From a plasmid: a stretch of 64,000 bases of DNA. Position numbers: made by a program. Each line of letters opens with the position of its first letter. Position 1 is the first letter of the stretch. Location: the NCBI RefSeq assembly GCF_053078305.1, contig NZ_CP166875.1; one strand, given 5' to 3'. This document shows positions 9,001 through 18,000 of this stretch, piece by piece.

Positions 9001-12000
9001 ATACAGCAGAAAGAATTCCGGAGACAACATCCAGCCCATCCCCCAGGGGGCCCAGGTTCGGTAAATTTTGTAATTTTCCACCAACAGAACTTAAGCGAGG
9101 TTTACTGGATAAAAATGAGCCAAGCTGGTTAAGCTGCTCAGAAAATGAATCAACGGTACTGTTTATACTTGATACTGTATCTACAAGCTGATTAATAAGT
9201 TCAATACTACTTTTGGCAATATCATTCTGACTTATATCCTCTCCTTCCCGTTGTTTTCTCAGCAATTCATCAAGAGCCATGCCAGATAAAGCAATCCCCG
9301 TAAAATTCTGTAGTGCTGAGAGAACTGTTCCGGCTTTTCCCAGATTATTACCTACATTTTCAGCGGTTCCTCCTATTTTACTCCCAACTTTCTGATACTT
9401 CTGCAGAAGTTTGTCAAGTTGTGGTGCGAATATTGCAACACCACGTTCAGTTAATCCTACAACTTTTTCTGCTGTACCAAAAAACTGGTTTGCAATCGCT
9501 GTATCATCTCGTTCAGTACGGTGTATTTCTATTCCAAGATCATCAGCAGCTTTGACCAACTCATTAATACCCACGCCCTGAGCTTCATAATTATCAGGTA
9601 TTAATAATATGAGTTTTTTTCCAGCGGAACGTACGCTTGATGATGCTGTATTGAATGCTGATTTTGTAGTCGATGTCGCATTGTTGAAAATGTTCTTTAT
9701 TTTATTTACTGTCATATTAGTTTTCTTTCTCAATATTAAAATTAAAATCTTGTCTGTTTTTTACTTCAGACATAAGTTCATGATGGTATTGCCTGAATAT
9801 TTTTGATGCCAGTTTTTTATCTATCCCCCCTCCATGAAATTCAGCTATTTTCCCTGTTTTACTGTACTCATCTAACCTTATTGCTCTGAATAACTCATAA
9901 GGATACTTTTTCCTCATGTGTTTATATAACTCCATGTTGTGTCCAAATGGAGCTATCCAGTCAATAAACCACTTTCTTTCTCCCGACAACCAGTCTTTTG
10001 CATACAAAGATGTTACATCATTTATATATTTTACCTCACACTCCAGATCTAAGCTGGCCCAGCTACAAAAAGCTACAGGAAGCTCATCCTTTATTAAGAG
10101 AGCAAATTGATTTGTCTGAATAGCAGGTATGACATTAATAGCAAAAACAGACAATGGCCATTTTTTATGCAGAGGAGAACAGGCCCATAGCCATGCAACC
10201 TTCCCCATGACGTCAAAAGCATTAGATTTCATAATGTTTAAATAAATAAGAAAACTCAGTAAATGTAAAGAAATCAATATAAAAGCATAAAAATTATATT
10301 CTTTAAGCAATAAGCATCTAAAAACAAAAAGCTACCGCAAGGAGAATCCCTCCTACAAAAAAACAACATTAGAAACAGTAATACATTAGCTATGTATTCT
10401 TATGCACACCTAGATAGATTATATTATAACATTCAGATGAATCACCCTGCGACAAACTTCTCATCAAAGAAATATCAAACAGGATGCAGCAAAGTAAAAC
10501 CCACCTATTAATAAAAAAGCCCCGGACATTCCGGGGCTACACTGCATATTAACGAACGCTCTGTCCGGTTATTTCAACCCTGCGATTGGGGCGCAGACAT
10601 TCCTTCAGTGCTTCGCCCTCCACATCCGGGCAGAACACCACTGGTGCATCATATCCACGGCCCGTTGCATGTATCCTTTCAGCCCTGAATCCCCGGGCAA
10701 TAAACCATCCCCTGACTGATTCCGCCCGTTTCTCTGACAGGAGCCGGTTATACGCCTGCCCGCCAAGATGGTCCGTAAATCCTTCTATCTTCACCCCGAC
10801 AACATGACCCGCCTGAAACTTCTCTGCCACACGGGAAAGTGCATCACGCCCCCTCTCTGTCAGAGTCCATGAATCAAAATCAAATAATATATCACCGGGG
10901 ACTGACTCCCTGTATTCTGCTGTCTCTGCCTCCGGCAGACAGTTTTCCGGCTTCCAGTAGAAAGAGCGGGCATCCATGTTCCGGTCAAACAGTATCTTGT
11001 ACTGGCAGGTATAATCCCCCTCCGGTCCGGTAAAGTTGAACAGGTAATCCCATTCCCTTACACCAGACATCCCTTCAGCAAAGTGTGGTCTCCCCGCCAG
11101 CTGATAAATCTGGTCCTTATTCATACCCGCCTTTATCTGACGTAACTTTTCTGGCAGTGGCCACGAACCTTTCTGTGTTCCGTCATGATTAAACATCACC
11201 TTCTCCGGAGAAGGCCATACCACTTCTTCCGTCGTTCCTTCATCCGTGACATGACTCAGATTTCCACATCCTGCAAGCATCAGGGACAGCACACCCGTCA
11301 TCATCATTCGACTAAATAACATTACATTTCTCCTTGCTTTTCCCTGTTACCACTGCCAGCCCACACCGGCACCGACGGAGAAATTACCCCGGGTGTTCTG
11401 ACCTGCATTCAGTTTCATTATCATCTTACCGTTATCGGAGATTCGGGACACACCTATTGCAATGGCGCTTTCACCACCATATCCACCGACACCCAGCCCC
11501 ATCAGACTTTTACCCGGCAGATAGGCCTGAGGTATCCCGCTCATGGCCGCAGCCGATGCGCCAACACCACGGATATCCCGGTTAAGCTCTTCCACCCGGT
11601 AGCTCAGCTGACTGAATTTATTCCCGAGAGTGTTTATCGCCTGTGTATTTCCGGCAACCTGACGGTTAGTTGCATGCAACTGACTGCCATTGACGGCATC
11701 CGTTGAGTTCGCAGACAACACACCCGGTGCCACTGACTGCAGCTGACGCTCCTGTCCCGGCTGACCAAAAGAAACCACCGCAGTATCACTTCCGGTACGT
11801 CCCGCAACAGCCTGACCGTTCAGGGCATAAGTCCCGGTATTCGCGCGGCCAGCACGGGCATGGCTGCCAACTGCAACAGAGCCGGCAGCAGCCTGACGCG
11901 TGACTTCAGCACCATTACCCATGGCAATGCTGTTTTGTCCCCGGGAAACGGCCCCCTGTCCGACAGCAATACTGTCACGCCCTTCCGCTTTTGCTGCCTG

Positions 12001-15000: not shown

Positions 15001-18000
15001 ACCGGCATTAGCCAGCGCATTAAAACCAACCGCAGTCGCCATATCCCCTTTAGCTTCCGCCGTGGCTCCAATTGCATTCGAGGCCATCCCCTCAGCAGAA
15101 CTCACCGAACCAAGCGATACTGACAATTCGCCTTTAGCAAAAGTTCTGCTGCCCAGCGCAATACTGCCATCCCCCTTCGCTTCCGATGCCTGATAGTTAT
15201 TCTCTATTTTTTCCCGACCATAAGTCTTACCATGCAAAGGAGTTAAATCATCCCCACCAATAACAATAGCCCCCCATCCGGTAGCTTTGGTATCGCCACC
15301 TATTGCAATTGACTGTTCTTTAGTTGCTTTCGTTTTCGCTCCTATCGCAATAGACTCGCCTGTGTACAAACCTTCCTTCGTGCTAATGTCACCTCCAGCC
15401 TCTGCACTGGTACCAATCGCGATAGAGTTACGTCCTTCAGCCACCGGTGATTTATGGTCGAAATTAATTCCCTTTGATTCATCTTTTGCTGTAAATTTCG
15501 TTGTACCTATTTCAATGCTCTTCCAGTCATCGCCATAGACATCATGGCCAAGGCTGGTTTCATCAACTTCAACAGTTAACTTATTTGTATCTGCCTGAGC
15601 ACTGACCTGTGATATGGATGCCGGATTAAGAACAAGTGATATGGCTATACAGATATGTTTTTTTCTGAGGTTCATATATACCCTCTTTTCTCCTTTATTT
15701 TCTTCCACTCAGTCGGAATAGCATAAAAATCATGCATGAATATTATGTAAGGTGGACTGCCTTCATTTCTTCAGCATCCATTTTTTATAAAGCCAGAAGT
15801 GAACAAAACGGGAACCATTAAAAAGCAGACAAAAGGAAATAAAGTGATTTATAATAATGCGAACATAAAACATATTAAGTTTAAGTAAACTACCCGACAT
15901 TACGCGTTACAGCAGAATGCAGGTACACTACCTGCCATTGACTGACGCACCGGCGAAGGCAATAAAAATGAGATACATTTCACTTCGCAGCAAAAAACGA
16001 AATTCTACAATTTTTCTGATTTTACTGACAGAAAAGCCTGAGAGTTAAATTTAAATAACTTAAAAGATTATGTGGTATAATCAGGTTCATACAGGCCTGA
16101 TTATTTTACGGGGATGTTAACTCTTTCAAATCAACAGTCTACGGAGAAGCAATGTGGTTATGGTCAATAAATGTTCACTGATTTCTTTCACGGTAATACC
16201 CGGGGCACTTCTTGTCCTCTGGTAACAAAGGTAACTGTACATTCGTCTTTGCAACTGACAGTGCATCACGGTTTTGAAGTACCTGCTGCTGTTGTTTTTT
16301 TACTCAGAAAGCGCAGTTACTCTTTATATTTTCCCAGCCTATCTCTTATTTTAATATACATCCACTGTCTGGCGTTTTAAGGGGCTGGCTCACTGGCCAA
16401 GTTGACATTAATCATCATTCCTGTCTTTGTCAGCGGAGACTTCTGCTGTCAGTTTTTTCATCCATACAGAGTGACATTAATTATCCGTAAGCGCACCGTG
16501 AAGGACGTGGGGTAAAAATTAGTTTACAGATAGAGTGACGTTCCAGGGCAACAACTCTTTCACGCGGTTGGCTGGCCAGGTGTTGATGACACTGATCACG
16601 TGGCGTAGCCACGTTTCCGGCTCGATTCCGTTAAGTTTGCAGCTACCGATCAGGCTGTACATCACTGCCGCACTCTCGCCTCCTCCATCAGAGCCGAAGA
16701 ACATGTAGTTACGCCGCCCCAGTGCAACTACCCGGAGGGCGTTTTCACACAGATTATTGTCGATCTCCACCCAGCCATTGCGGCAGTATTCGTTCAGGGC
16801 GTCCCATTGCTTCAGCAGATAGGTGAACGCTTTCGCCGTATCCGAGTGACGCGACAGCGTGCTCATCTGCCCCTGGAGCCACTCATACAACGACTGCATT
16901 AGCGGTACCGTTCTGGCTTTTCTGACCGCCAGTCGCTCTTCTGCCGGACTGCCGCGGATCTCAGACTCGATAGCGTACAGTGCCTCGATAGGGCTGCGTT
17001 TGGGAAACGTACAATATTGTACGGTTGCGCTATTGCGGTAGGGTGTACTCCAACGCTATACGGTATTTGGCAGACCTTTAGGGACATGAGATAACCTAAA
17101 TGCAATAAGAGAAAAGCAATAACTTAAAGGCGATAGCTGATCACGATGAATCAATCAGTTACTTATCCGCATCGATTAAAAAATGCTCCTAACGTACAAT
17201 AATTCCGTTTCCCAAACCGACCCCTCTCATAGCTCACGCTGTTGGTATCTCAGTTCGGTGTAGGTCGTTCGCTCCAAGCTGGGCTGTATGCACGAACCCC
17301 CCGTTCAGCCCGACCGCTGCGCCTTATCCGGTAACTATCGTCTTGAGTCCAACCCGGTAAGACACGACTTAACGCCACTGGCAGCAGCCATTGGTAACTA
17401 AACAAGGTGGATTCCGATATTAGAGTCTTGAAGTGATCACCCAACTACGGCTACACTGAAAGGACAGTATTCGGTATCTGCGCTCCACCAAGCCAGTTAC
17501 CACAGTCGATTAGAAGAGGTCGAAGACTTCTAATCGGACGGAAAAAGCCGCCGCAAGGCGGCTTTTTCCGTTTACAAGCCGAAGATTACGCGCAGCTTAA
17601 AAGGATCTCAAGAAGATCATTTTAATTTTGCTGATCGTTGCTCCCTACCAGTGACCATACGGATAGGGCTTTTCCTTGATAAAATCGCGGATAAATGGAT
17701 CGTAACCATTAGCCTTGATGTAACTGAAATCAATCTGGTTGGGAACGTTTTTGCATATCAGCATATCATCTCCCGTCAGAGTGAACTGCCGGGCAGGATG
17801 TTGGAGTACAACAGGCTCGCCATTATCCTCCAGCCAGATCCGCACGGCCCCTCCCGGTGCCAATCCGATAATCATATTGTCCCGATAATACGTTTTTCCC
17901 GGCTTATAGGTATCAGGATAGGCAGTCAACATCTGCTGCCACGTATCCCGGCTGAACCAGATCTCCGTCTCATATGCCTTTTTATCGATAACCGAATCCC

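Follow-up and report, generated by a model that had tools for sequence, protein, structure and literature searches.

A predicted Sab-family trimeric autotransporter adhesin and its probable TpgA-family cell-wall tether in a two-gene operon of an STEC hemolysin plasmid

On an ehx hemolysin plasmid of Escherichia coli that produces Shiga toxin (STEC), a gene for a large YadA-type adhesin is followed at once by a gene for a lipoprotein with an OmpA-like domain, which raises the question of whether the two proteins work together and of what differs between isolates that carry them. The stretch analysed, hereafter the window, comprises 64,000 nucleotides (nt) of the plasmid contig NZ_CP166875.1 (assembly GCF_053078305.1). 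An earlier note on this DNA had read the two genes as an operon with a shared terminator beside the hemolysin genes, had suggested that the lipoprotein is a dedicated assembly or anchoring partner, and had expected the repeats of a highly repetitive passenger to vary in number between isolates. Its gene structure is borne out: on the minus strand, a 1,442-amino-acid (aa) open reading frame (ORF) with YadA_head, YadA_stalk and YadA_anchor domains precedes, across a gap of 24 nt, a second ORF of 257 aa with an LAGC lipobox and a Pfam OmpA domain (Table 1). Judged from sequence comparison and by analogy with a characterized Acinetobacter system, the pair is probably a bicistronic adhesin operon of the hemolysin plasmids of STEC negative for the enterocyte effacement locus (LEE), encoding a Sab-family type Vc adhesin and a TpgA-family cell-wall tether. 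The ingredients are already known: Sab has been named and studied, the TpgA family has been described, and cassettes of a trimeric autotransporter adhesin (TAA) gene with tpgA (taa-tpgA) have been published with Escherichia among the genera listed.

Sequence and modelled fold place the lipoprotein in the TpgA family, its N-terminal domain (N-domain) being closer to that of TpgA than to BamE. The N-terminus of the protein, MLFSRMMMTGVLSLMLAGC, holds the lipobox, whose cysteine is invariant among the full-length homologues aligned, and by the E. coli +2 rule the Gly at position +2 predicts that the protein is sorted to the outer membrane, in its inner leaflet. Pfam assigns BamE to aa 54-115 (E = 3e-14) and OmpA to aa 146-228 (E = 1.9e-16). 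Searched with phmmer against all Protein Data Bank (PDB) sequences, the N-domain matched the TpgA chain 9VNJ_B at E = 1.1e-11 and the best BamE at E = 0.021; BamE structures fell at E = 0.02-0.4 overall, and those of E. coli BamE at E = 0.2-0.4. The top NCBIfam model is the TpgA equivalog NF047726 (E = 1.5e-34), which is collinear with the protein (residues 4-252 on profile positions 5-267 of 268), and the TpgA of A. baumannii, whose gene lies 57 nt downstream of a TAA ORF of 2,277 aa, can be aligned with it over the full length (28% identity, E = 5e-34). An AlphaFold2 model was built on a 17-sequence alignment, and only its N-domain was taken into fold comparison; there the predicted local distance difference test score, by blocks of ten residues, is 82-95 over most of the domain with dips to 70-74. 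With this model Foldseek ranks 9VNJ_B first (template modelling (TM) score 0.83, root-mean-square deviation 2.5 Å) and gives BamE entries TM scores of 0.58-0.70. The OmpA domain matches the C-terminal domain of Salmonella OmpA (4RHA) at E = 2e-18, with the GFTD...LSEKRA motif and a C-terminal Cys pair aligned. In OmpA_C domains, the Asp and Arg of a GFTD...SEKRA-type motif bind the diaminopimelate of peptidoglycan.

The Acinetobacter AtaA/Ata-TpgA systems (Ishikawa 2016; Yoshimoto 2025, PDB 9VNJ) have the same layout, a taa gene followed by a gene for a BamE-like plus OmpA_C protein, and provide a template for the predicted contacts. In that complex, three TpgA N-domains sit on the periplasmic face of the AtaA barrel (A3B3) through the contacts K64-D3601 and D65-K3576 and a hydrophobic tip, L80/F81; the F81A mutation in TpgA weakened binding, and Acinetobacter TpgA co-isolates with peptidoglycan (Yoshimoto et al., PMC12523085). 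All four charged residues have kept their identity in the E. coli pair: K64 and D65 correspond to K69 and D70 of the lipoprotein (NKDQ), and K3576 and D3601 to the K of LPGK and the D of RISDNGK in the adhesin anchor. The SDNG[KR] loop is also present in the TAAs that precede TpgA-like genes in Neisseria weaveri, an Enterobacterales and Pseudomonas, as well as in Hia, and is absent from YadA, which is without the Asp.

Linkage of the two genes was followed across replicons. The earlier note had named a lipoprotein that is dispensable, and unlinked in homologous loci, as the finding that would speak against its reading; among the 14 E. coli loci examined, the lipoprotein gene is linked to the adhesin gene in 14/14, with a gap of 23-24 nt in every one. 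The pair was found in 65 PLSDB plasmids; among 5,426 complete E. coli genomes, 86 have it, and 22 of 96 matched places are chromosomal. Chromosomal islands carry the pair flanked by ireA and an IS3 remnant, beside a different type I secretion operon, and on a canine IncF plasmid it lies, with no adjoining ehx genes, between a gene for a serine protease autotransporter of Enterobacteriaceae (SPATE) and a short YadA-anchor gene. Because these loci hold the pair without ehx neighbours, the position beside the hemolysin operon, correctly recorded for the window, is common but incidental, and it is the adjacency of the two genes to each other that is invariant. Distant homologues in N. weaveri, an Enterobacterales and Pseudomonas lie 60-84 nt downstream of YadA-anchor (TAA) genes (3/3). 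In published surveys, TpgA-like genes cluster apart from bamE, 91% of the cluster is found downstream of a taa gene and the listed genera include Escherichia (PMC12523085), and 644 TpgA homologues occur among genes within 5 ORFs of TAA genes (2026 preprint, bioRxiv 10.64898/2026.01.22.700529). The TpgA-family match, together with a linkage of the two genes that holds at all the homologous loci examined, lends good support to the suggestion of a dedicated anchoring partner.

The adhesin, for its part, is by sequence a trimeric autotransporter (type Vc), having the C-terminal anchor, the signal peptide and the head/neck/stalk passenger of that class, and a trimer is predicted. Pfam reports YadA_head in three stretches, YadA_stalk in four and a C-terminal YadA_anchor (E = 5.9e-19). 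The N-terminus carries a Sec signal peptide, MNLRKKHICIAISLVLNPASISQVSA, followed by QA, and Pfam reported no extended signal peptide region (ESPR) domain. The middle passenger matches modules of Hia (3EMI), BadA (3D9X), VompD (4LGO) and AtaA (3WPR/3WPA) in the PDB, and is followed by a BpaA/SadA-like second head, necks at about aa 1145 and about aa 1324, and a short coiled coil; three neck motifs of the form STDA[IV]NGSQL are present in the protein. The anchor is closest to that of Hia (3EMO/2GR7, E up to 2.5e-24), in an alignment that reaches the last residue and includes the SDNGK loop, and matches the AtaA transmembrane domain (9VNJ_A) at E = 7e-7. Unlike Hia, which lies outside any taa-tpgA cassette (PMC12523085), the adhesin has a different passenger order and different heads, and unlike AtaA/Ata it is much shorter (1,442 versus 2,277-3,630 aa).

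Its nearest named relative is Sab. The gene labelled 'autotransporter adhesin Sab' on pO113 (NC_007365, 118908-123200) is syntenic, lying directly upstream of ehxC and having the same downstream lipoprotein gene after a 24-nt gap. The two proteins are similar in length (1,431 aa for Sab) and 81.4% identical overall, but identity is about 56% over aa 1-350, where the signal peptide also differs, 82% over aa 351-1000 and about 100% over the C-terminal stretch of about 440 aa that begins at aa 1001. NCBI gives the label 'autotransporter adhesin Sab' to fragments identical to the C-terminus of the window adhesin, annotates full-length alleles of the window type only as 'YadA-like family protein', and through AMRFinder assigns the name 'sab' to the pO113-type allele only. 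Because of this uneven identity and the labels on the fragments, we call the window adhesin a Sab-family allele with a different head. By synteny, the position of the sab locus upstream of ehxCABD on a large STEC plasmid is shared by the window and loci L001-L003 and L016-L020. The report of the pO113 sequence already described the gene, LH0147, as encoding a putative new trimeric autotransporter (PMC2681110), and reviews citing Herold et al. 2009 place Sab at the cell surface and state that it promotes adherence to HEp-2 cells and the formation of biofilm (PMC6024878, PMC12547504). The partner encoded in the window also differs from that of pO113, its OmpA domain being a different allele (62% identical).

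A further difference concerns the DNA upstream. On pO113-type plasmids a gene for a PapB/FocB-family regulator lies directly before sab (L002 14546-14827; L003 8928-9236; L016-L020), which suggests fimbria-like regulation of that allele group, whereas tblastn found no homologue of a PapB-type regulator anywhere in the 64-kb window. The adhesin gene of the window is instead preceded by an AT-rich region of about 480 bp that is common to the chromosomal copies and stops at an IS66 remnant. This remnant, the C-terminal part of an IS66-family transposase (126 aa, E = 1e-35; 16519-16899, minus strand), truncates the region upstream of the operon; the chromosomal relatives have ireA on that side.

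Operon signals are compact. No terminator was found by the terminator scan in the gap between the two genes, which holds a ribosome-binding site, and the only strong terminator in that scan lies directly after the second stop codon, with a 9-bp stem containing seven GC pairs and then TTTTTT (-17.6 kcal/mol, z = -3.6; 0/200 shuffles fold as well), so the shared terminator of the earlier note stands. A longer adhesin ORF (11347-15708) with a GTG start at 15708 would add 11 aa; the ATG at 15675, which has GAGGG before it, was taken as the start because every allele begins at the corresponding Met and a Sec signal peptide follows. By synteny with annotated plasmids 98-99.7% identical to the window, ehxC and then ehxA follow immediately downstream of the lipoprotein gene in the same orientation; the nearest record, CP061837.1 from sheep, is 99.7% identical, and the window is that of an STEC ehx plasmid. 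An Rfam scan of positions 10000-17000 for RNA elements gave one chance-level match only (a human long non-coding RNA model, E = 0.59).

Table 1. Coordinates of the adhesin operon and of the predicted features of its products (window positions).
Feature	Position	Strand	Basis or remark
AT-rich leader/promoter region	15676-16154	-	Several sigma-70-like sites; chromosomal copies ~93% identical
Adhesin gene, Sab variant	11347-15675	-	ORF and translation, Pfam; stop codon 11347-11349
Sec signal peptide, aa 1-26	15598-15675	-	From sequence; cleavage predicted between VSA and QA
Hypervariable YadA-like head and first neck, aa 27-350	14626-15597	-	PDB matches: UspA1, YadA and EibD heads
Middle passenger, aa 351-1000, divergent Hia/BadA/AtaA-type module repeats, mosaic patches between alleles	12676-14625	-	PDB matches
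Conserved C-terminal third, aa 1001-1442: second head, necks, coiled-coil stalk, anchor	11350-12675	-	PDB: BpaA, SadA, Hia
YadA-type membrane anchor, aa 1382-1442, LPGK and SDNGK motifs	11350-11532	-	Pfam YadA_anchor
Intergenic gap, 24 nt	11323-11346	-	AAGGAG ribosome-binding site; terminator scan
TpgA-family lipoprotein gene	10549-11322	-	257 aa
Lipoprotein signal peptide, lipobox L-A-G-C, Cys19	11266-11322	-	Sequence; Gly at +2
BamE-like/TpgA-N domain, aa 20-128, predicted adhesin-barrel binding site	10939-11265	-	9VNJ_B match
OmpA_C peptidoglycan-binding domain (predicted), aa 129-257, three allelic types	10552-10938	-	Pfam OmpA
Intrinsic terminator hairpin and T-run	10518-10538	-	Common to both genes, upstream of ehxC

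What distinguishes the isolates examined is a recombinational exchange of two modules, the adhesin head and the OmpA domain, on either side of a conserved core; variation in repeat copy number was not seen among them. Allele lengths were taken from the 14 loci, 13 of which hold an intact adhesin allele, because protein-homologue searches gave no length distribution: the lipoprotein N-domain recovered short BamE-only or partial proteins only, and the adhesin C-terminus fragments or proteins of at most 720 aa only. The 13 intact alleles span 1,431-1,448 aa, with indels of 1-5 aa. Tandem Repeats Finder reported nothing above score 34 in the adhesin gene and no array, and direct DNA repeats are limited to 19-36 nt at 71-89% identity. 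Internal protein repeats, located by windowed searches against a masked copy (plain self-BLASTP returned the identity match alone), are 26-59% identical, and the modules of the middle region 26-38%. The passenger is thus not 'highly repetitive' in the sense that predicts copy-number change, and the expectation of varying repeat number gives way to domain swapping.

Divergence is distributed unevenly along the operon. Between alleles, the adhesin head is 54-72% identical at the protein level, with at least 8 types among 13, synonymous divergence (dS) of 0.6-2.0 and a ratio of non-synonymous to synonymous divergence (dN/dS) of 0.18-0.36; the middle is 77-96% identical in a patchy manner (dS 0.11-0.37). 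The C-terminal third is 97-100% identical (dS 0.003-0.14, dN/dS 0.00-0.08) and the lipoprotein N-domain 95-100% (dS 0-0.13), after which the OmpA domain again falls into three types, 62% and 82% identical (dS 0.7-2.0), all of which keep the GFTD...SEKRA motif. The dN/dS ratio is below 0.5 throughout the operon and about 0.05 in the core, and dS in the flanks is high, which suggests that their modules diverged long ago and were imported and did not arise by rapid change in place. The conserved core coincides exactly with the coding sequence of the two predicted interaction partners, the adhesin C-terminal third with its anchor and the lipoprotein N-domain. Two loci of the set carry damaged genes: in the unannotated record CP027641.1 (L015) the adhesin ORF is broken, leaving a 465-aa C-terminal ORF, and in L016 (2174-2887) the lipoprotein is truncated to 237 aa. 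These represent either natural decay or assembly errors.

Other explanations of the lipoprotein and of the passenger can be set against these results. The lipoprotein could be a dedicated BamE paralogue that acts transiently in the β-barrel assembly machinery (BAM) complex and catalyses adhesin insertion, an assembly factor and not a permanent anchor; the Pfam BamE match, a BamE-like fold, the label 'bamE' given by the NCBI Prokaryotic Genome Annotation Pipeline (PGAP) in many records, and reports that TpgA aids surface display of Ata/AtaA (PMC6363060; bioRxiv 10.64898/2026.01.22.700529) all fit such a role. We nevertheless regard it as improbable, given that sequence and fold are much nearer to the TpgA N-domain than to BamE and that a purely catalytic role leaves an OmpA_C domain with an intact peptidoglycan-binding motif unexplained. 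A general envelope protein of the OmpA/Pal/YiaD type, with no specific relation to the adhesin and merely co-mobilized with it, would account for the many matches of the OmpA domain, taken alone, to generic OmpA-family lipoproteins (YiaD, YfiB, Pal). It would not account for a short gap and unbroken linkage across differing replicons and neighbourhoods, for the three distant homologues behind TAA genes, for the survey figures of 91% and 644, or for a most conserved block that spans the adhesin anchor and the lipoprotein N-domain, and is very hard to credit. We give scarcely any weight to the last alternative, a passenger built as an array of tandem repeats that would gain or lose copies from one isolate to another, in the manner of the C-terminal repeats of Saa, and so produce length or phase variation: the passenger does contain recognizable repeated modules, and a varying number of repeats is reported for Saa of related plasmids (PMC6024878), but the lack of DNA tandem repeats, the low identity between protein repeats and the narrow length range of the intact alleles contradict it in this sample.

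Two known lipoprotein types were also considered as identities and rejected. A true BamE shares the alpha-alpha-beta-beta-beta fold, the lipoprotein nature and the Pfam BamE domain, but it is the product of a housekeeping gene without adhesin-gene linkage and has no OmpA domain, features that make the window protein atypical in addition to its marginal sequence match and worse structural fit. SadA-SadB of Salmonella and E. coli likewise combines a trimeric autotransporter and a helper lipoprotein in one operon (PMC12523085); SadB, however, is an inner-membrane lipoprotein with transient action, whereas domain scans of the present lipoprotein show BamE, OmpA or TpgA-type matches only and its Gly at +2 predicts the outer membrane.

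For a Sab-family adhesin with a TpgA-family tether, the following scheme can be proposed by homology. Sec would export the adhesin, and the C-terminal anchors of the trimer would form a 12-stranded outer-membrane barrel through which the passenger of about 1,350 aa (head, modular stalk, second head, necks and coiled coil) would reach the surface. There the window allele would be expected to mediate epithelial adherence and biofilm formation, as pO113 Sab does. The lipoprotein, presumably carrying its lipid on Cys19 and residing in the outer membrane's inner leaflet, would bind the periplasmic face of the adhesin barrel through its BamE-like N-domain, each trimer taking up three copies on the model of the A3B3 complex of AtaA and TpgA, while its OmpA_C domain would bind peptidoglycan non-covalently. 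An adhesin tethered to the cell wall in this way may be better displayed at the surface and may resist being pulled out under load. Adhesion, lipidation, complex formation and peptidoglycan binding are thus predicted for the window allele from its relatives.

Several observations weigh against this reading or narrow it. The NF047726 match scores 119.4 bits, far under the equivalog cut-off of 350, and AlphaFold2 confidence is low in the OmpA domain, for which the alignment is shallow. The equivalent of TpgA F81 is Ser, so that the tip pair L80/F81 becomes Met-Ser (EGMSGV versus EGLFAV), the first residue being hydrophobic and the second not aromatic; the rule of a hydrophobic/aromatic tip is itself loose, because the second position varies among 14 homologues (Y, F, A, V, G, I or a gap). 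Acinetobacter TpgA has a signal peptide without a lipobox cysteine, which makes the predicted lipid anchor a further departure. By sequence, therefore, the partner deviates from the described TpgA in two ways, predicted lipidation and a non-aromatic tip. Sab is functional in E. coli JM109 according to reviews (PMC6024878), and if that clone lacked the downstream gene the partner may not be strictly required; with a head only about 56% identical to that of Sab, the window allele may differ in binding specificity. In the literature searched, no experiment on the present pair and no paper containing both 'TpgA' and 'Sab' was found.

A more specific proposal is that the Sab partner is a lipidated TpgA variant with a three-point hold, by lipid, barrel and peptidoglycan, and that anchor and N-domain are passed on together as a co-adapted and almost unchanging cassette, to which recombination joins varying heads (at least 8 types) and OmpA domains (3 types) of long divergence. 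We put this forward tentatively and with some doubt. Were it true, the partner would be needed for full display of Sab, or would bear load, in STEC, and virulence typing based on sab would miss most head variants.

The Sab-TpgA connection leaves current understanding of the systems involved unchanged; it is a useful annotation that brings a named virulence factor of E. coli under the TAA-TpgA concept already published. Sab is a virulence marker for LEE-negative STEC, and it is a type Vc autotransporter, although in some reviews it appears among the classical type Va autotransporters. With a TpgA-type tether encoded next to it, Sab would seem best studied functionally, and best expressed in other hosts, together with the downstream gene. 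Many divergent head types surround an invariant anchor, and assays targeting the pO113 allele may therefore underestimate how frequent the locus is.

Several further observations concern the surroundings of the pair. On the canine plasmid p100, the product of the gene just downstream of the pair (L007 4576-5340) is a 254-aa 'YadA C-terminal domain-containing protein', and the SPATE gene is upstream. The locus of pCFSAN004176G_02 (L008 4001-4447) is decayed, IS66 having taken out the adhesin gene along with the 5' half of the lipoprotein gene; this plasmid also holds the heat-stable enterotoxin gene sta1. Some ehx plasmids (L008; matches H68-H70 and H95) retain only the 3' 447-451 nt of the lipoprotein gene, its OmpA half, beside ehxC. 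On NZ_CP129349.1 (H5, H97), match coordinates place IS66 apparently between the lipoprotein gene and the region upstream of ehxC, with both genes of the pair intact. BamE-only TpgA homologues (L009 8478-8891, N. weaveri; L011 8504-9433, Enterobacterales) are accompanied within 4-24 nt by a third gene for a secreted protein, which in N. weaveri has a weak, sub-threshold match to the L,D-transpeptidase domain YkuD (E = 0.004, motif NGCINV). As an idea only, the third gene may provide another link to peptidoglycan.

We note that the A. baumannii record NZ_CP077849.1 (L021), filed in PLSDB as 'plasmid pDETAB15' with 3,658,084 bp, contains a TAA-tpgA pair like the chromosomal ata-tpgA and is evidently a chromosome filed as a plasmid. 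Elsewhere in the window (17645-20051, minus strand), two ORFs with a 23-nt overlap encode a 563-aa protein with a Tle1-like phospholipase effector domain of type VI secretion systems (PF09994, E = 1.7e-17) and a 245-aa DUF2931 protein with a lipoprotein-like N-terminus, and look like an effector/immunity pair carried by the ehx plasmid.

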